DNA of 64,000 bases. Source: Dictyostelium discoideum. Its lineage: Eukaryota. Of this stretch, positions 51,034-62,986 are shown piece after piece. The stretch is from NCBI GenBank assembly GCA_000004695.1, contig CM000150.2, positions 4,288,001 to 4,352,000 on the forward strand, read 5' to 3'. Below the pieces are notes generated by a model that saw only the letters and a list, made by a program, of their open reading frames with translations, was not told the origin of the DNA and did not search any database. A program made the position numbers and the translations under genes. The stretch's first letter is position 1, and each line of letters opens with the position of its first letter.

Positions 51034-51529
51034 TAGTTGAAAGTAAATATCTAACATTTAGTTTATTATATATCTAATTAATTAATCATTAAAAAATATA
51101 AATATACATTCATAATTGGCCCATACTACTTTATTACCATTTTCATTTTCTTATAAACAACTGCCTAAATTATGATTTATTTGGGTTAAAAAATAAATTA
51201 AAAAAAAAAAAAAAAAAAACATTTTTATACACTGATATATAAATACAAACATTTCCATCCTCTTGAAGTATAAGTGGTTATCATATGTCCTGGTTATTGT
51301 AATAGTGAAATATTTAAAAAAATAAAACAAAATTTATTATTCTCATACAAATTCAATTATTTTAGTGGTAATTATTATTTTTGTCTTTGATTTATAGAAT
51401 TGTTGTGATTAGTCAATAATTTCTAATAAATTTTTTTTTTTATTTTTTATATACAATTAACTAATAAACTTAACAAGATTTTAATTTACAAAAAAAAAAA
51501 AAAAAAAAAAACCATTATTTTCCCAATTG

Positions 51530-52174
51530 ATGATCGGTAGTCCACAATCGTTGCCATTGGGATTGGGAGTTGGTGGATCAATGTTGTCCTTAATACTTTG
51601 CAATATGCAACAACCTACATATACAACTTATGACACCATTTGGGATGGTCCATTGGATTATAGTGTAAAGAAACCAATTTTAAAAAGTGTTGATAAAAGT
51701 GGTAAAAGTGTAATAGAGTTTGAAGAATTCAGTAAATCGGTTATACCAATTACAGTTGCCAATTATTCAACGTTACATAAAATGGCATTCGTTTCATTTT
51801 GTGTATTCAATGGAATTTCACTATCACCCGCTTTCGGATTACTCCCAGTATCTACAGTTTTGGGGGTCGCAGCTTTAAGTGTATTCGTTACTGGTGGTAG
51901 TGCTTTTGCTGCATTAAAGATGAAACCTGATAGTTTAACCAAATATAAACCAATACTCTATGGTAGCTTGTTTGGTCTTTTCGGATTGGGTTTGGTTTCA
52001 ATTGGTACTTCAATAATGATGGGTGAGAATACTTTCACCCATTTCGCTCAAGAGTTTGATCTCTATTTTGGTCTTGCTTTATTCACTGGTTTAACTGCTT
52101 TAGATACAATGCTGTCAAAACTTTTCAAGAGGGTAAACCAGATAACATTAGAGTTTCAATTGATCTATTTTTAG
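51530..52174 (+). CDS. Multi-pass membrane protein with GC-shifted codon usage. Possibly TMBIM/BI-1-family-like.
   Basis: The ATG is at 51530. There are glycine-zipper TM helices (GSLFGLFGLGLVSIG). The C-terminal LDTMLSKLFK resembles the TMBIM 'DTQ..I' motif. Third-codon positions are unusually G/C-rich for this genome. Confidence 0.4.
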   Translation: MIGSPQSLPLGLGVGGSMLSLILCNMQQPTYTTYDTIWDGPLDYSVKKPILKSVDKSGKSVIEFEEFSKSVIPITVANYSTLHKMAFVSFCVFNGISLSPAFGLLPVSTVLGVAALSVFVTGGSAFAALKMKPDSLTKYKPILYGSLFGLFGLGLVSIGTSIMMGENTFTHFAQEFDLYFGLALFTGLTALDTMLSKLFKRVNQITLEFQLIYF

Positions 52175-52830: not shown

Positions 52831-54379
52831 ATGACAGAAAAATATAAGGTAAACTTTTTTTATATTTTATTTTTATTTTATATTTTAAATTATAATTTCA
52901 ATGTTGTAATTTCAATTTTTCCAACATCATTTTCTCAAATTAATTCAACAAATGGGTTTTTAATATCAGAAGGCAGAAGTTTAATTTCAATTACACATGG
53001 AGACTTGAACGGTGATGGTAATGATGATTTGATATATGCTAAACATTCAGAAGGACTATATGTATTTTATGGGCCATTAGCAAGTAATTTTGATTTTCAA
53101 ACAGACATATCAAAAATCAACGGTTCAAATGGTTTTATTTTTTTAAATACTACTGTTCTAATGTATCGAATAGCTGTTGGTGATATAAATAATGATGGAT
53201 TTGACGATATTGCTTTTTTTTTAAATATTATGCCAGGAAAACTTTGTGTTATCTATGGTACTGATCAAATTATATCACCTTCTACTTTTTCCACAGTGAA
53301 TGGTAATAATGGTTTCTATATTTCTCACGTTTCGTCCTCTAATATTGCATTTGGGCTTGTAAGATCAATCATTGATTTCAATGGTGACTCAATTAAAGAT
53401 TTATTTGTAGGTACATATTTTTTTTATTTTTTTATTTTGTTTTAAAAGTATTGTTGTTAATACAACACATATTTTTTTTTTTTTTTTTTTTTAGGTCTCT
53501 GCAAGTATAGGAACTTATGTAAGTACAGGAACACCAATTTCATATATGATATTTGGTATAAACGGTGGTAAATTTCAAGTTAATTCACAATTTGAATTTG
53601 ACCCTTCAACATTAAATGGGAGTAATGGTTTTTTAATTAATAATTTCAATTCATATGCGGCTTATCCTTATGATATGAATAATGATGGGATTGGTGATAT
53701 AATTATAAATAGGGGACATATAGCAATCGATATTATTTATGGTAGCAGAGGTCCTTTTACCTCACCATATATCCCAGTTTATGATGGTGTCAAAGGTACC
53801 AGTTTCAGCTTTTTAGGTTGCTCAACAAATTATAATGCTCTTCCAAATGCTTTTGGAGATTTTAATAATGATGGACTAAATGATTTTGGTGTAATTTATT
53901 CTTTATTATTTTTTGATTATTCTTATTCTTTATTATCCTTTATTGTTATTATACTAATTTTTACATTTTATTAAATAATTTTAGATTCTTACAAAACATA
54001 CTTCGGGTGACTATATAGCTTTTTTGGTTTGGGGTAAAACAGAATATCCACCAACAACAACATTAAGTATAAATCTAAATCCATCGGATGGTTTGGTTAT
54101 AGCAGTTATTGGCAACACCTATAACTGGGCTTTTTCTCCTAGGTTAGGGGATATAAATAATGATGGATTTGCAGATTTTTTAATCAATGGTAACACTGAC
54201 CTCCCATTCACCATTTTGTATGGTAATAATAAAAATTATGCTTCAAATCCAATTTATTTAAAAGATCAAGTTGGTGATTGTTCAAAAATGTCAATTAATG
54301 GCTATGCTGAGGCTATTGATATTGGTGATTATAACTCTGATGGTATTGATGATATTGTAAGTAATATTATATTAAATCA

Positions 54380-54459
<80 letters not shown>

Positions 54460-56152
54460 CATTATTTTTAACTTTTAAATAACTCTATTCTATCAGACAG
54501 CAGCTATATTAGCAACAGGTTCATATTTAGATATTTATACAATATATGGTCAAACTTCGATTGGTTCAATTTCAATAATTAGTAAATTATTTCAACCAAA
54601 TCCAATGTCAAACTCAATTTATAAATTATTTGAAAATAATATTAATTCAGAAGTTGGACAATGCGCAATTAGAATTGTTACATTAACAATTGAAAATCCA
54701 GCAAATGAAGATCAATTTATTATTAATCCTAGTTTCGATAGTTCAATATATTCAATAACATTTAATAATAATACAAGAGTTAGAATTGAATTAATATTAT
54801 TTGGTGATGAGAGTAAATCAATTGCAAATGATGTTTTACCAAAAATAACAGTTTCATTGTCACCTCAGCTATTTAATAGAACTATATTAATGAAATATGG
54901 TAATCAAGTACAATCAATTAAATTCATTGGTCAACCAAATGCAAATTGTGATACAAAATGTTTAAATGGAGGTACTTGTAATCCACTCACTGGTTGCCAA
55001 TGTATAAATGATCATTATGGTGATTATTGTGAATTAAAAGATTGTACAGTTCCACAATGTTTAAATGGTGGTTCATGTAATACAACAGTTGGTGAATGTT
55101 CATGCACTCAAGGTTATGAAGGTACGGATTGCAGTGGTATTAGTTGTTCAGCTTCATGTTCAAATGGTGGTTCATGTAATACTACAGTTGGTGAATGTTC
55201 ATGTCCTCAAGGTTATGAAGGTGTAGATTGCAGTGGTATTAGTTGTTCAATTTCATGTTTAAATGGTGGTTTATGTAATACTACAGTTGGTGAATGTTCA
55301 TGTATTAATGGCTTTTATGGTGATGATTGTGATACAAAGGATTGTACAGTTCCACAATGTTTAAATGGTGGTTCATGTAATACTACAGTTGGTGAATGTT
55401 CATGCACTCAAGGTTATGAAGGTATAGATTGTAGTGGTATTAGTTGTTCAGTTTCATGTTTAAATGGTGGTTTATGTAATACTACAGTTGGTCAATGTCA
55501 ATGTATAAATGACTTTTATGGTGATAATTGTGGTACAAAGGATTGTGCAGTTCCACAATGTTCAAATGGTGGTTCATGTAATACTACAGTTGGTGAATGT
55601 TCATGCACTCAAGGTTATGAAGGTATAGATTGTAGTGGTATTAGTTGTTCAGTTTCATGTTTAAATGGTGGTTCATGTAATACAACAGTTGGTCAATGTC
55701 AATGTATAAATGACTTTTATGGTGATAATTGTGGTACAAAGGATTGTACAGTTCCACAATGTTTAAATGGTGGTTCATGTAATACTACAGTTGGTGAATG
55801 TTCATGCACTCAAGGTTATGAAGGTATAGATTGTAGTGGTATTAGTTGTTCGGTTTCATGTTTAAATGGTGGTTTATGTAATACTACAGTTGGTCAATGT
55901 CAATGTGTTGAAGATTATGATGGCGATGGTTGTGGTTCTGATAATAAAAAGAAAACAAATATTGGTGTTATCATTGGCCCAATTCTAGGTGGTCTTGCAC
56001 TAATTGCAATTATTGTTGTTGCAATTGTTTTAATTAAAAAGAAGAAGAATGGAAATTCAAAAAAAAATACAAATAACATTGAATTAAGACCTCAAGGTTC
56101 CACTGTTGATATTCAAATGGGTGGTAGAATTAAAAATCTTGATAAATTTTAA
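52831..56152 (+). CDS. Type-I membrane protein: signal peptide, an integrin-alpha-like FG-GAP beta-propeller, about 13 tandem EGF-like repeats, a TM segment and a short basic tail. Four exons: join(52831..53406 or 53410, 53495 or 53529..53890, 53985..54356, 54497..56152).
   Basis: FG-GAP/Ca-binding repeats are GDLNGDGNDDL, GDINNDGFDDIA, DFNGDSIKDLFVG, MNNDGIGDII, FNNDGLNDFG, GDINNDGFADF and GDYNSDGIDDI. The EGF units are CLNGGSCNTTVGECSCTQGYEGIDCSGISCSVS. The TM segment is IGVIIGPILGGLALIAIIVVAIVLI, followed by KKKKNGNSKK. The exon 1/2 junction is ambiguous between two phase-compatible solutions. Confidence 0.75.
54377..54466. repeat. (TTA)n microsatellite in the FG-GAP gene intron 54357..54496.
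   Basis: Run of tta repeats. Confidence 0.85.
55041..55900 (+). repeat. Tandem near-identical 198-bp repeats, each encoding a pair of EGF-like modules, inside the FG-GAP gene.
   Basis: The motif GATTGTACAGTTCCACAATGTTTAAATGGTGGTTCATGTAATAC... recurs with more than 90% nucleotide identity. Confidence 0.7.
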
Positions 56153-57086: not shown

Positions 57087-58771
57087 ATGAAAATGGAAAT
57101 TTGGAAAGTAATATTTTCAATTTGGTTTTTGTTATTCCAAAATTTTGTTTTAAGTGCCAAAAACGATGATAAGTAAATATGAAAATCTTTTTGTTTGATT
57201 AAAATTGGAGTTTGTTTTTAATAAATATTTATTAATAATTTTTATTTAGTAAATTAAAAGTTATAAGAGGAAGAAATGTAATTTATAATGGAAACGTTAT
57301 ACCATTATCAATTTTAATAAGGTATTTATTGAAAAAATGAAAAAAAAAAAAGTTTTAATTGTTAATTGTTTATTTATTTAAAATTTTTAGAAATGGTAAA
57401 ACAATAGGTATTAAAGATTATTCATTTAATCCTAAAAAATTGAATGAAAATTATGAAATTTTATATGATGATCGTGAATGTAATAATAATGAAGATTTTA
57501 TTATAATGGGTGGTTTAGTTGATAGTCATGTTCATGTTAATGAACCAGGTAGAACTGAGTGGGAGGGATTTGAAAGTGCAACAAGTGCAGCAGCAGCTGG
57601 TGGTGTTACTACAATTGTTGATATGCCATTAAACAGTTCACCAGTAACTACAAGCTTTAAAAATTTACTTGATAAAATTGAATCTATGAAAGGTAAATTA
57701 AGAGTAGATGTTGGATTATTGGGTGGTATAGTTCCAGGAAATTCAAAAGAAATAAAAAAAATGGTTTTACAAGGTGGGGTATTAGGATTTAAATCATTTT
57801 TATTACCATCTGGAATTGATGAATTTCCTCCAGTAAATGAGAATGATATTCAAGAAGCAATGAATGAAATGAAATTATTAAAATGTCAATATAATAATTC
57901 AGATGTAATTATGATGTTTCATGCAGAAGTTGAAGAACCAATTAAAGAAGCAACTGTTAGATTAAAAAATGAAAATGCCGATCCAAAATTATATAAAACC
58001 TATTTAGATAGTAGACCTAAAATATCAGAAAATCAAGCAATTTCTAAATTAATTGATATAACTAGACAAAACCAAATCGTATCAACACATATCGTTCATT
58101 TATCATCAAGTGAATCAATTGAACAAATTAGAGAAGCAATGGATCAAGGTGTACCAATTTCCGCAGAAACTACATATAATTATTTACATTTAACTTCTGA
58201 ATCAGTACCTTATGGAAACACATTATTTAAAAGTGCACCACCAGTTAGAGAACATGAAAATAAAGAATTGTTATGGAATGCTATTATTAATGGTACAATA
58301 AAATTAATTGTTTCAGATCATTCACCATGTACAATTAATTTGAAACAATTGAAAGAAGATAATCAATCAATTGGTGATTTCTTAAAAGCATGGGGTGGTA
58401 TTTCATCATTGGAATTAGGTTTACCAATAATTTGGACAGAATGTAAAAATAGAGGTATTCCAATTACACAACTCTCTGAATGGTTATCAAATGGACCATC
58501 TAAATTAGTTGGTTTAAATGATAGAAAAGGTTCAATTGAAATAGGTAGAGATGCTGATTTTGTAATTTTCAATCCAAATGAATCATTCATTGTAAATGAA
58601 AAGAAATTATTTTTAAAAAATAAATTCTCTGCATATAATGGTGAAAAATTATTTGGAGTAGTTTATGAAACAATTTTAAGAGGTAATTCAATTTTTAAAA
58701 AAGGTGATAATAAAATTAAAAAAATTATTGGTCAACGTTTAATTAAATCAAATTTAATAAATAAAAAATAA
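57087..58771 (+). CDS. allB: Allantoinase (cyclic amidohydrolase) with an N-terminal signal peptide. Three exons: join(57087..57172,57250..57321,57391..58771).
   Basis: Exon 1 is [28 protein letters not shown], with a GTAAAT donor. Exon 2 is [24 protein letters not shown]. Exon 3 has [40 protein letters not shown], the metal-binding HxH and carbamoyl-Lys region typical of allantoinase, and ...VSDHSPC. The gene symbol is a guess. Confidence 0.8.
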
Positions 58772-58843: not shown

Positions 58844-59837
58844 TTAAAATCTACCTTTAACATTTGAAGAAATATCTCTTAAGAAATTATAAAATGATGG
58901 ACCAGCATTATTTTCTTCATCAATTAAAAATTTAGTGAATTCAATTGGATTTTCAATTAATTTACCTTTAAGATATTGAATTTCTGGTACAATTAAACGA
59001 TCTTGTTTACTATTTGAAATGGTTTGACGAATTAAACTTTCAGGTGGTGGTGGGAATTGATGATGTGAAGAAACCTCTTGAAGATTATAGAAAACCACAA
59101 GTTGATCAAAACTATCAACTAAATAGATATGAGATGTACTTGTGAGTATTGTATTTTGAGATAATGGTAAATATTTTGAAGCTAAATTATTTGGTGCACC
59201 ATAACTATACAATACTGGATAGATTGAACGATGTAATAAACGTGGCTCTAGTGTTGAATATAAACATTGATGATAAATCCATTCATCAGATTTCTTCTTT
59301 ATGGTTGATGCTTCAATATCGGTTGTTAGTTCCCTAAGTATTGGTGATTTCATCAATGCAAATACGTATCTTGGTAATGGTCTTAAATGAGAGACTTGTG
59401 AAAAGTTTACATCAATAGATGAAGTTACCGATGACAATATTACAACGTTTTCGTTATATTTTGTAATGATATTCTTTAACCAATCAACTAGTGAAATTCT
59501 TGCCTCTGAAATACCTTTTTCTAAAGTTTCTCTTATTATCTTATTTGTAAGTAATGAAATGGTTGTCTCTAAATCAATTGAATTAAATACTTCAATTGGT
59601 GTATCTGCAACTGGTACTCTAATATTAAATATATGTAATCTTTTCTCTATAATTCTATCAGAATTGCTTGTTGAATTAATAGCACTACTACTATTACCAC
59701 TTGATTTTAAAATATTATTATTTGATGAAAATAAAGTTGGTGATATATTATTTTGTTGTTGATCATTTGATGATCCAATTGGTGGTAAATATGAATAAGA
59801 AAATGCAATTTGTATATTTGGTGAAAAATCCTTACTA

Positions 59838-59879
<42 letters not shown>

Positions 59880-60775
59880 ATTAATAATTGTTTATAATTT
59901 ATTTATATATATATATATATATATATTTAAATATTTATTTAACTTACTCTTGAAAACCTGAAGAATTATTAAATTTAAATTCAAAAGCAATACTTGTAAA
60001 TGGATTAGATGCTTCAATATGGTATAAATTATCATATTGTTTACTTGCAATTGCAGGTCCATATGAACAATCAACAGAGAATTGTTTACTTGTTCTAATT
60101 CTTAATAAACCATGAAATCCCCATCCATATGAAATTAATTTATATCTTTAAAAATAAAAATAAAAAAAAAAAGATTAATAATAATAATAATTATAATAAT
60201 AATTATAATAGATTTATAAAATTATAATACATACATATCTTGTGGTAAAGTACAAGTTGGTAAAAGTTTATTATATCTATAAATTTGACCACCAGTTATT
60301 GTTGAAAGGAATTTTATTGAATCAAAACCAAAAAATTTATCACCTACTGCAAATATATCGAAATGAGCACCAACTTCAATTGCACGTTCTGCTAATTTCC
60401 TATAGATATTAGTTGTTGGTTTAAAAAATTCTTTTTTGCCATAACTATTTGATAAATCTTCAAGTGATGAAAAATTATTTTCAATTGGACTTTCTGAAAT
60501 AAATAATCCAATTTTAACTATTATATATATATTTTTTTTTTTTTAATAATAAAATTAGAATTATTAATTGAATATATAATATATTATATAAATATAAATT
60601 GAGAAATACTATACCATTTAATTTAAATAAATCAATTGATAAATAATCCATTAATAATTTAAGTGTATCAGATAATGCAACAGATTTTAATTTCTTTGAT
60701 ATAGTTTCATTAATTAAAGGTATTGATTGAATTGCTTTAATTATATTTGATTCATTTTTTCCTTTCTATAAAGTT

Positions 60776-60829
<54 letters not shown>

Positions 60830-61734
60830 TAATAATGTAACGATAATAACAATAATAATGATAATAATATTTTAAAATATTATATATCTTACATTTACTA
60901 AAAACTTTTCAATTGATAAAATATCAGAGAAATTAAAATCATTAATATTTTCAACGAATTTAATTAAAGGTGTTGAAGTATTTAAATTGTATAAACCTAT
61001 TCTTGTTGAATAAGTTATTAAACCAAATAATGCGTTATTTGGTAATGCATGTATCAATGCTTCTAATCCTTGTGTGATTGCATCATGTTGTTCTTCATTA
61101 CCTGAATAATCTACAACTGCAATATAAATTGGATTATTTATCAATGGTATCATTGAATATGGTATTGAATCTGGTAATGATGATGACGATGATGATTCTT
61201 GTTGAGTATTATCATAATCACCACCACCACCACTACTACTACCATCAAATTGGTCTTGATCAACTAATAATTCAATTGAATAATTTGATAATTCTGGTAA
61301 TGATTCTCTATTTGGTCTTGCATATCTTGATATTTGTTGTTGTTGTTGTTGTTGATTGTATTGGTTATTATTATAATTATCATTATCACTATCATTATCA
61401 TTATCATTATCAATATTAAAACCTGTATAATTTATCTTATTTAATGATTCACATATATTACATCTCCAACCACCACGTTCAAATTTCACTAAATTATTTA
61501 TATAAGCAAAACATTTTTTACATCTACCTATGTTTTTTGAATTTTCTTGATACCTAAAATTGTTTTTAAATGGTTGAATTACACATCCAAATATTGATCC
61601 TGATCCCTCTTTTACCTCTACTATAAATTAAATTGTTTTTTTTTCTATTAGTAACTTTTGAAACTATATTGTTATTATATTGTACCATTTATATTTACAA
61701 TTAACAGGGAATCTTTGAGAGGAGAATCTAACAT
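58844..61734 (-). CDS. Sec23-like COPII coat family protein (divergent Sec23/Sec24 fold, 790 aa). Six exons: complement(join(58844..59834,59948..60145,60235..60493,60615..60765,60893..61617,61686..61734)).
   Basis: Zn-finger GRCKKCFAYINNLVKFERGGWRCNICESLN. Trunk-domain segments PIYIAVVDYSGNEE...ALFGLITYSTRIGLYNL and YRKLAERAIEVGAHFDIFAVGDKFFGFDSIKFLSTITGGQIYRY. The C-terminal segments SIYPVLYSYGAPN...HIYLVDSFDQLVVFYN...SFYNFLRDISSNV are colinear with Sec23. All six exons are phase-consistent. The total length matches Sec23, about 765 aa. Confidence 0.7.
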
Positions 61735-62289
61735 TCATCAGATTTTTATCTTATTAAACAGTGCACAAACACTTCAATTAAATTTAAAATTTAAAATTAA
61801 AAAAAAAAAAAAAAAAAAAAAATTTCATTTTTTTTTTTTTTTTTTTTTTTTAATATTACAAAAATTAAATCATAATATTTAATTTTAAAATAAATATTTA
61901 TTTGGTATTAAAAATTGAAATAATGGTTCCAAAATAAATTTTAATATTATAACTTTAAAAGACTTATTTATTTATTTGTGTTTGGGGAAAATAAAAAAAA
62001 AAAAAAAAAAAAAAAAAATGAAAATAAATAATATTAACTGTATAATTTTTTTATTCTTTTTTAATTTTATCTTAAATGTAATAAACTCAATATTTCTTTT
62101 AAACTTTTATTTTATTTTATTATTTTAAAAAAAAAAATTAATATCTTTTCCTTTTATCATTTCAATAAATTAGAATTTAGCCCTTTTTTAAATATTCAAT
62201 TTTCAAAGGTTATAAATATATTGTATATAATTTCAAAGAAATTATCAATAACATCAAATGACCAATAACAATAAAGTCAAGTTAAAAAA

Positions 62290-62713: not shown

Positions 62714-62986
62714 ATGGCCAAATGTGAAGCTTGTGGTGGTATTGCATCTGTTACTTGTGGTGTAACTGGTTGTGGAAATAAAGGATGTCTTAATTGTCCA
62801 TATATGACAGCAGTTTCAAGATTTACAAATACTTTCAATGCAAGAAATGTTACAAATACAATTAATCGTAATTCTCCATTCGGTGCAAACATGTCAAATA
62901 CTATGTTTGAATGTGGCGATTGTAGAAATGCTTCCAACACCTCTTCTTCCAACAACTCCACTTCATCTTCTTCTGATGACTCTTAA
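62714..62986 (+). CDS. Small Cys-rich protein (90 aa) with GC-shifted codon usage. Hypothetical.
   Basis: ATG ORF MAKCEACGGIASVTCGVTGCGNKGCLNCPYM... with a Ser-rich C-terminus. An overlapping minus-strand ORF of similar size exists. The coding strand was chosen on the ATG and on codon usage. Confidence 0.3.
   Translation: MAKCEACGGIASVTCGVTGCGNKGCLNCPYMTAVSRFTNTFNARNVTNTINRNSPFGANMSNTMFECGDCRNASNTSSSNNSTSSSSDDS

Follow-up and report, generated by a model that had tools for sequence, protein, structure and literature searches.

What kind of Sec23/Sec24-family protein is encoded towards the end of a 64,000-nucleotide stretch of the Dictyostelium discoideum genome (GenBank assembly GCA_000004695.1, contig CM000150.2, positions 4,288,001 to 4,352,000 of the forward strand; the whole stretch is called the window below), and what might so divergent a member of the family do? 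The locus lies on the minus strand at positions 58844-61738 of the window; it is A+T-rich, and its long open reading frames (ORFs) are split by short, very A+T-rich gaps. A reading made from the letters alone (the sequence-only reading) had placed here a divergent 'Sec23-like' paralogue and had offered an alternative cargo adaptor among its candidate roles. We describe a gene of six exons whose 796-amino-acid (aa) product is assigned below to Sec24III, a lineage apart from both canonical Sec23 and canonical Sec24. We put at about 60% the probability that Sec24III is represented in D. discoideum by this gene and that its product acts, as predicted, as a specialised cargo adaptor in the inner coat of COPII (coat protein complex II). 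The family and the gene were already described in 2014-2015, and the finding is a re-discovery.

A six-exon gene on the minus strand

The gene was reconstructed independently from the minus-strand ORFs, which were spliced at canonical GT..AG sites. The resulting model has a coding sequence of 2391 nucleotides (nt) that translates into 796 aa, and its five introns are all GT..AG, 78-127 nt long and 85-96% A+T. The exons are the following:

61699..61738, minus strand: exon 1, with the ATG at 61738; encodes MNVRFSSQRFPVN plus 1 nt and carries the first beta-strand of the beta-sandwich
60893..61620, minus strand: exon 2, with the zinc finger, two low-complexity inserts and the first half of the trunk domain
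60615..60765, minus strand: exon 3, trunk domain
60235..60517, minus strand: exon 4, end of the trunk; carries the family-invariant TGG..Y..LPQD
59948..60145, minus strand: exon 5, beta-sandwich, with RIRTS
58844..59834, minus strand: exon 6, end of the beta-sandwich, a low-complexity insert, and the helical and gelsolin-like domains; stop codon at 58844-58846

The N-terminus encoded by the short exon 1 is kept in dictyostelids and plants (MNVKFS.., MAVRAT..RFP), and its strand (residues 2-5) has a predicted local distance difference test score (pLDDT) of 95 in the AlphaFold2 model described below. The spliced product does not differ by a single letter from GenBank KAM9940747.1, 'hypothetical protein ACTFIT_007259 [Dictyostelium discoideum]', and the window DNA is 99.8% identical across 9.2 kb to the assembly from which this entry comes (GCA_054883475.1). 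KAM9940747.1 falls into one 90% cluster with the protein of the reference strain AX4 (DDB_G0271044 / XP_646591.1 / Q55C90, 782 aa), to which UniRef gives the name 'Protein transport protein SEC24'. The window gene is the same gene as AX4 DDB_G0271044 / XP_646591.1. No second Sec23/24-like locus was found in the window by tblastn.

The sequence-only reading had thus put a Sec23/Sec24-family gene in the right place, and its six exons are borne out by the GT..AG introns and by the match to an annotated protein. Its coordinates (58844-61734) were right to within 4 nt, the conserved start codon being at 61738 and position 61734 being the ATG of the AX4 model, and the 790 aa that it gave for the product must be corrected to 796.

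Five domains and three low-complexity inserts

Pfam reports three domains above threshold, zf-Sec23_Sec24 (4.5e-07), Sec23_trunk (7.9e-22) and Sec23_helical (5.7e-14), and a fourth, Sec23_BS, at an E-value of 4.8e-05 that is below the gathering score. Along the protein, the domains are arranged as follows:

61433..61525, minus strand: zinc finger, aa 46-76 (R46-C47-x-x-C50 ... C67-x-x-C70); Pfam PF04810, E 4.5e-07
60267..61135, minus strand: trunk domain, von Willebrand factor A (vWA)-like, aa 176-390, interrupted by introns 2 and 3; PF04811, above the cut-off
59792..60120, minus strand: beta-sandwich core, aa 410-481, interrupted by intron 5; PF08033 at 24.3 bits, cut-off 33.5
59234..59575, minus strand: helical domain, aa 554-667; Pfam PF04815, E 5.7e-14
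58847..59233, minus strand: gelsolin-like domain and C-terminal helix, aa 668-796, with no Pfam match

As Pfam detects no gelsolin domain in the 796-aa protein, the C-terminal part was assessed from a structural model and from the family. The AlphaFold2 model was built on a 96%-identical allele (P0001) with 17 family sequences and reaches a pLDDT of 82.3 and a predicted template modelling score of 0.84, low confidence being limited to three low-complexity inserts and one short loop of the trunk. In this model, strands and helices are found throughout residues 668-789, the beta-sandwich strands occupy residues 404-478 and 524-533, and the whole aligns across 611-639 residues to Sec24 and Sec23 chains. 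Plant members of the family are alignable across the gelsolin region too. The colinearity of the domains with Sec23/Sec24, already noted by the sequence-only reading for the zinc finger, trunk, helical, gelsolin-like and C-terminal segments, is far above chance; on the model, the five-domain Sec23/Sec24 architecture is complete, with a gelsolin-like domain that goes undetected by Pfam.

The three inserts, all predicted to be disordered, are these:

61325..61429, minus strand: insert 1, Asn/Asp/Gln-rich, about aa 78-112; pLDDT below 50
61166..61255, minus strand: insert 2, Gly/Ser-rich, about aa 136-165
59654..59785, minus strand: insert 3, an Asn/Ser/Gln-rich loop of the beta-sandwich, about aa 484-527

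None of the three is present in non-dictyostelid homologues, and they account for all of the length variation (776-796 aa) among the alleles of D. discoideum isolates. The isolates carry 6-11 substitutions in the 687 core residues, and every indel that distinguishes them lies inside the 109 insert residues; the AX4 entry, which differs through its gene model only, was left out of this count. As core substitutions are few and indels are confined to the inserts, within-species variation argues for a functional protein.

The strong divergence from canonical members, the three inserts, the gelsolin domain missed by Pfam and the sub-threshold beta-sandwich are what one might also see if the gene were a decaying or non-functional duplicate, or if the exon model fused unrelated ORFs. 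We regard this as having next to no probability: the frame is intact, the splice sites are canonical, the product matches an annotated protein exactly, the sequence is conserved over its full length between dictyostelids and plants, confidence in the five-domain model is high, and variation within the species is almost wholly in the disordered inserts. A pseudogene and a chimaera of unrelated ORFs were both rejected on the intact frame, the annotated match and the end-to-end conservation.

A third Sec23/Sec24 lineage

Orthologues are present in all dictyostelids sampled (42-92% identity), and end-to-end homologues of 27-35% identity (E 1e-53 to 1e-103) were retrieved from plants, Selaginella, streptophyte algae and other protists; NCBI names the plant homologues 'protein transport protein SEC23 D'. 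Three word-indexed homology searches, the third with a low-complexity-poor alignment as query, gave 19-30 matches apiece, and neither Arabidopsis At2g27460 nor the other D. discoideum Sec23/24 paralogues were among these matches. An exhaustive profile search of 1.84 billion representatives returned 4904 proteins at E <= 1e-3, 723 of them at E <= 1e-30. The top 150 representatives all score at least about 220 bits, approximately where canonical Sec24 sequences start to appear, and at the 50% identity level there are about 100 representatives that group together, apart from Sec24 and Sec23. Thirty representatives of this search were named via cluster look-ups. Among the named members are proteins of Balamuthia and Rhizamoeba, of Gloeochaete, Porphyridium, Ectocarpus and Chrysoparadoxa, and of Paulinella, Diacronema and Hanusia; the confirmed taxa include a glaucophyte, a red alga and brown algae, Paulinella, a haptophyte and a cryptophyte, as well as Balamuthia, Rhizamoeba and all dictyostelids sampled.

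Members of the group retrieve one another rather than canonical proteins. The window protein finds plant SEC23 D at 2.8e-87, compared with 1e-8 for the best canonical Sec24, and in the other direction a tblastn search with plant SEC23D finds the window locus (1.6e-48). Members from Salpingoeca and Porphyridium likewise retrieve their own lineage over canonical Sec23/Sec24.

The Salpingoeca member is a choanoflagellate transcript (P0134; EukProt EP00051 Salpingoeca urceolata, 820 aa) that belongs to the lineage, contamination being possible. Its BLAST matches are plant SEC23D at 8e-51, yeast Sec23 at 1e-15 and yeast Sec24 at 1e-14; it forms the deepest branch of the family in the tree described next and has no LPQD motif. 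Loss of Sec24III from opisthokonts has been described.

A neighbour-joining (NJ) tree was computed from Kimura distances over 619 columns for 114 sequences (104 of the family, 8 Sec24 and 2 Sec23). The 104 family representatives were recovered together in 63 of 100 bootstrap replicates, the 8 canonical Sec24 and the 2 Sec23 in 100 of 100 each, and the window protein fell outside both the Sec23 and the Sec24 group. Mean distances are 2.16 between the family and Sec24, 2.14 between the family and Sec23, and 2.30 between Sec24 and Sec23. On these distances, the family appears to behave as a third Sec23/Sec24 lineage of comparable depth. It has signature motifs of its own (RCxxC-aromatic, LFGL, TGG..Y, LPQD, RxRTS and a C-terminal LIEE..SFxxFL), which are invariant or nearly so in the family alignment A1 and are all present in the window protein. 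The position of one of them is:

60237..60248, minus strand: family signature L397-P398-Q399-D400, invariant in alignment A1; in the 104 sequences, L in 80, P in 73, Q in 64 and D in 95

Databases give this one lineage contradictory names: 'SEC23 D' (plants, NCBI), 'Sec24B' (Balamuthia), 'SEC23' (Hanusia), 'Protein transport protein SEC24' (UniRef, for Dictyostelium and Cavenderia) and 'Sec24-like At3g07100' (Ananas). The Heterostelium member is called 'VWFA domain-containing protein'.

The lineage has a short published history. De Craene et al. (2014) described Arabidopsis At2g27460 and At4g01810 as AtSec23/Sec24L1 and L2, possibly a new COPII-like family (PMC3934973). Schlacht & Dacks (Genome Biol Evol 7:1098, 2015; PMC4419792) set out a 'Sec24III' clade in plants, SAR (stramenopiles, alveolates and Rhizaria) and Amoebozoa and inferred it for the last eukaryotic common ancestor (LECA). 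A table of that paper lists XP_646591.1 as DdisSec24B and its 662-aa Heterostelium orthologue as PpalSec24B, alongside a canonical DdisSec23A (XP_640392.2, 750 aa), a long-branch DdisSec23B (1121 aa) and two canonical Sec24s, DdisSec24A and DdisSec24C (PMC4419792). We infer that XP_646591.1 lies within the Sec24III clade by elimination and similarity, DdisSec24A and DdisSec24C having canonical sizes and canonical proteins as their best human matches. The idea that the window gene might encode the only Sec23 of the genome was rejected on the separate canonical DdisSec23A in the same table. That entry, together with the placement outside both groups in the NJ tree, upholds the view of the sequence-only reading that this is a divergent second-tier member rather than the housekeeping Sec23. 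We found no literature on the function of the Dictyostelium Sec24III gene.

Sec24-type or Sec23-type

The window protein shares 21-23% identity with yeast Sec23 and Sec24 and is thus, as had been noted from the letters, only loosely similar to them; pairwise BLAST against the two is uninformative (both E about 1e-9 to 1e-10). Profiles and structures are more discriminating. Scored against the PDB, the family profile gives 218.6 bits for Sec24B, 208.8 for Sec24A, 204.5 for Sec24C and 161 for yeast Sec24; Sec23 scores lower, at 138.7 (yeast) and about 121 (human Sec23A). In whole-chain Foldseek comparisons Sec24A/B/C/D rank first (E 3e-46 to 1e-40, template modelling scores 0.70-0.78), followed by Sec23 at E 1e-36 and weaker, and when Sec24 and Sec23 queries were compared by tblastn, only the Sec24 queries matched the window. 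In these comparisons and in the tree, the window protein neither groups with nor scores best against Sec23 sequences or structures.

Residue positions were transferred through a MAFFT alignment whose identity is about 20%. The yeast Sec23 and Sec24 references were verified residue by residue and are identical to the PDB chains, the human SEC23A reference was checked by one full-length match (1789.3 bits, residues 1-765 of 5kyn_A), and human Sec24B residues 44-749 were taken from the family-profile alignment. Three arginines of the Sec24 cargo-binding B-site have counterparts in the window protein:

61523..61525, minus strand: codon of R46, equivalent to B-site R230 of yeast Sec24; R in 87 of 88 family sequences and 8 of 8 Sec24, absent in Sec23
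60094..60102, minus strand: codons of R416-I417-R418, equivalent to R559/R561 of yeast Sec24 and R750/R752 of human Sec24A; LLRIRTSK aligned to VMRIRCTK

R230, R559 and R561 occur in all 8 Sec24 sequences and in neither of the 2 Sec23, and the columns of R416 and R418 hold Arg in 98/104 and 100/104 family members. A role of the B-site arginines in cargo binding has been documented (PMC5464768, PMC4831881), R750/R752 of human Sec24A binding the cargo carboxylate (PMC5464768). That these Sec24-type carboxylate-binding arginines are kept lineage-wide speaks for a cargo-binding function. All four cysteines of the zinc finger are kept in 88-92 of the 104 family sequences, the remainder being gaps except for one Ser, and the spacing of the zinc knuckle is that of Sec24 (CxxC), not that of Sec23 (CxxxxC). 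At the C-terminus, 'FLIDEE..SFYNFL' matches 'LIEDR..SYYEFL' of Sec24.

Conversely, the residues on which Sec23 function turns are replaced. The column of the catalytic Arg722 of Sec23 is variable in the family (S/A/R/Q/K/N/E), with K768 in the window protein and Arg in 13/104 sequences, the register there being uncertain; no conserved Arg is found in the neighbouring columns across the family alignment. The Sec31-contacting Phe (human F382, yeast F380) corresponds to Leu397, the first residue of LPQD, and is Leu in 80/104 family sequences. Other Sec24 features are altered: B-site R235 becomes F51 (aromatic in the family) and L616 becomes S479 (small or polar in the family), C-site R342 becomes N209 with the Sec24 insertion absent, and A-site W897 becomes E765, none of these four columns being conserved in the family as it is in Sec24. 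The protein begins at the first core beta-strand, with no disordered N-terminal extension, and its trunk strand LPNNALFGLITY resembles LPPNALIGLITY of Sec23. The protein is a mosaic whose function-linked features point to cargo binding, not to GTPase-activating protein (GAP) activity.

Part of this mosaic invites another reading, in which the protein is a Sec23-type subunit that binds Sar1-GTP and pairs with canonical Sec24, as an alternative and possibly GAP-weak Sec23 altering coat dynamics for particular cargo. In its favour are the name SEC23 D used by NCBI and TAIR, the Sec23-like size and absent N-terminal disordered region, the near-identical trunk motif, the lack of the Sec24-specific C-site insertion, a mean distance to Sec23 (2.14) that is not above that to Sec24 (2.16), and the redundancy of AtSEC23D with AtSEC23A, a divergent Sec23, in exine formation (PMC5889017). 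However, the Arg-finger column is unconserved and the Sec31-contacting Phe is replaced, as in AtSEC23D (PMC5889017); every profile and structure ranking favours Sec24; and the three B-site arginines, the CxxC spacing and the Sec24-type C-terminal motif are kept family-wide. A Sec23-type subunit therefore seems to us distinctly improbable. The label 'Sec23-like' given by the sequence-only reading does not survive these comparisons, with profile scores of 205-219 bits for Sec24 against 139 for yeast Sec23, Arg722 and the Phe lost, and Sec24 features present.

The AX4 reference model

The 782-aa protein of AX4 can be rebuilt exactly from the window DNA with four alternative start or splice choices:

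61734, minus strand: ATG, 4 nt downstream of 61738; this is also the end coordinate of the sequence-only reading
61685-61618, minus strand: alternative first intron
60328-60277, minus strand: extra 52-nt 'intron' within exon 4
60231, minus strand: donor shifted by 4 nt

The extra 52-nt intron is 73% A+T, compared with 84-96% for the other introns. In the AX4 model another sequence stands in place of the N-terminal strand MNVRFSSQRFP, whose conservation extends from dictyostelids to plants and with which the first strand of Sec23 and Sec24 can be aligned; the model also deletes or frame-shifts the family-invariant TGG..Y..LPQD. Because the conserved strand and TGG..LPQD are lost, the AX4 reference model is probably mis-spliced at two junctions, the 796-aa model being the conserved one. 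A look-up of the 782-aa product in the contig collection gave no match. Newer annotations of D. discoideum strains use the 796-aa model. The AX4 reference model needs correction before constructs are designed on it.

Proposed role

From the gene structure, fold, family placement and residue conservation described above, we infer a partner, a localisation and a mode of cargo binding for Dictyostelium. The Sec24III protein would be a cargo-selecting subunit of a COPII-type inner coat. Through the trunk domain it would pair with a subunit of the Sec23 type (canonical Sec23 or else the divergent Sec23B), and Sar1-GTP would hold this partner at the membrane of endoplasmic reticulum (ER) exit sites. 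The conserved arginine cluster R46, R416 and R418, which corresponds to the B-site pocket of Sec24, would grip the carboxylate of acidic or C-terminal export signals, and by this means specialised membrane cargo or cargo receptors, as a subset of the whole, would be loaded into vesicles. As the pocket's hydrophobic half is altered (R235 to an aromatic residue, L616 to a small or polar one), its signal specificity should differ from that of canonical Sec24, and as it has no arginine finger, the Sec24III protein itself is proposed not to stimulate Sar1 GTP hydrolysis. On sequence evidence and analogy, a specialised inner-coat cargo adaptor is the most likely role. The cargo adaptor proposed from the letters is thus the role that the evidence favours, and the idea is not new, the lineage having been recognised in 2014-2015.

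Several observations weigh against the cargo-adaptor role. By Kimura distance the family is equally far from Sec24 (2.16) and Sec23 (2.14), and the term 'Sec24-type' is therefore based on profiles, on structure and on a few motifs; the monophyly of the family has an NJ bootstrap of only 63%. Sec23-like traits are present, namely no N-terminal extension, the trunk LPNNALFGLITY close to LPPNALIGLITY and no R342 C-site insertion, and of the five B-site positions examined, two differ (R235 to F, L616 to S). No complementation of yeast sec24-11 or lst1-delta was obtained with the plant protein, its expression not having been verified (PMC3934973). The residue mapping itself comes from a MAFFT alignment at about 20% identity, in which the register of the gelsolin domain around Arg722 is uncertain.

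Data on the plant orthologue count in favour of the cargo-adaptor role. Aboulela et al. (2018) reported that AtSEC23D (At2g27460) is found at ER exit sites with AtSEC24A, has no equivalents of Arg722 and Phe382, and is required together with AtSEC23A for tapetal secretion and pollen exine (PMC5889017). The lineage might instead form a separate ancient coat or scaffold rather than part of the standard COPII inner coat, either as a pre-budding complex with a long-branch Sec23 (DdisSec23B; At4g01810) and perhaps SarB, or in a structural role unrelated to budding. The distribution of the lineage, patchy but very wide with repeated losses (PMC4419792), is in keeping with this, as are the retention of long-branch Sec23B and SarB in D. 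discoideum (PMC8358228), the suggestion by De Craene et al. that the two plant proteins are a new COPII-like family (PMC3934973), and the family-specific invariant LPQD, which suggests a conserved partner surface of its own. A non-vesicular structural role of Sec23/Sec24 proteins is seen in the pre-conoid ring of Toxoplasma (PDB 9ya0, a recent cryo-electron microscopy structure). However, AtSEC23D is found at ER exit sites together with AtSEC24A, a canonical marker, the single atsec23a and atsec23d mutants are mild and the double mutant severe, which fits redundancy better than an obligate pair, and SarB and Sec24III overlap poorly in phylogenetic profile: Vargová et al. (2021) found SarB to be equally patchy with a profile unlike that of Sec24III (PMC8358228). 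A separate coat or scaffold is accordingly unlikely in our view. A more specific form of it, which we hold to be quite unlikely, would put Sec24III in the Sec24 position of a second inner-coat heterodimer dating back to LECA, with DdisSec23B XP_629583.1 / At4g01810 as partner in the Sec23 position, driven in Dictyostelium perhaps by SarB and not Sar1, with the LPQD surface replacing the Sec31-binding site of Sec23 as a partner interface; it would have been lost in most opisthokonts and maybe kept in some choanoflagellates.

Under the cargo-adaptor role as under its alternatives, the lineage consists of ancient trafficking proteins, widely but patchily kept, that are missing from yeast and animals and whose role is known only from plant anthers. 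Dictyostelium is tractable and has Sec24III, a divergent Sec23 and SarB, and so offers an entry to whether early eukaryotes had more than one inner coat for ER export.

Neighbouring genes

The convergent neighbour of the Sec24III gene, at 57359-58771 on the plus strand, encodes an amidohydrolase (Amidohydro_1, E 1.6e-21) that is allantoinase- or dihydroorotase-like; its end at 58771 is 72 bp from the Sec24III stop codon, and its product in a related assembly has 510 aa. Further away on the plus strand, FG-GAP repeats (52831-54482) are followed by numerous EGF repeats of the teneurin type and, at the C-terminus, a transmembrane segment (54605-56152). The whole of 52831-56152 is one gene with a 999-aa product in a related assembly, an integrin-alpha-like or teneurin-like surface protein. 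The ORF at 51527-52174 (plus strand) matches the Bax-inhibitor-1 family (Bax1-I) at E 1.9e-08, slightly above the Pfam cut-off. On the other side, about 1 kb upstream of the Sec24III start and on the opposite strand, the ORF at 62714-62983 (plus strand) encodes a small Cys-rich peptide (MAKCEACGGIASVTCGVTGCGNKGCLNCPYM...) with a Ser/Asn-rich tail. Nothing here suggests a functional cluster around the Sec24III gene.

Comparison with known systems

Plant full-length homologues named 'SEC23 D' share 27-33% identity and the same motifs with the window protein. One of them, NP_565651.1 (745 aa), we take to be At2g27460 (AtSEC23D / AtSec23/Sec24L1) on length and names. The Arg finger and the Sec31-contacting Phe are missing from both the plant and the Dictyostelium proteins, whereas the tapetum and pollen exine phenotype and the localisation to ER exit sites are known for the plant protein only. 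The plant paper reports, from Pfam, that the beta-barrel and gelsolin domains are missing; our alignment and model indicate that both are present in the family.

As described for the Sec24III clade (PMC4419792), members retrieve each other and not Sec24I/II, a pattern that is reproduced here. Our sampling differs from the published one in adding a glaucophyte, a red alga, a haptophyte, a cryptophyte, Rhizaria and one choanoflagellate transcript, and by distance the clade is here not nearer to Sec24 than to Sec23.

The best profile and structure matches are those to canonical Sec24 (yeast Sec24, human Sec24A-D), which shares with the window protein the R-CxxC knuckle, R230/R559/R561 and the C-terminal LIED/LVED...SYxxFL. 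However, the window protein lacks the disordered N-terminal region, other residues stand at R235 and L616, neither the R342 insertion nor W897 is conserved, and it falls outside the Sec24 clade with its 100% bootstrap. With canonical Sec23 it has in common the five-domain fold, a similar length, the absence of an N-terminal extension and the trunk strand LPxNAL(I/F)GLITY; in contrast to Sec23, it has neither the conserved Arg finger nor the Sec31-contacting Phe, its zinc knuckle is spaced differently and its scores are lower.

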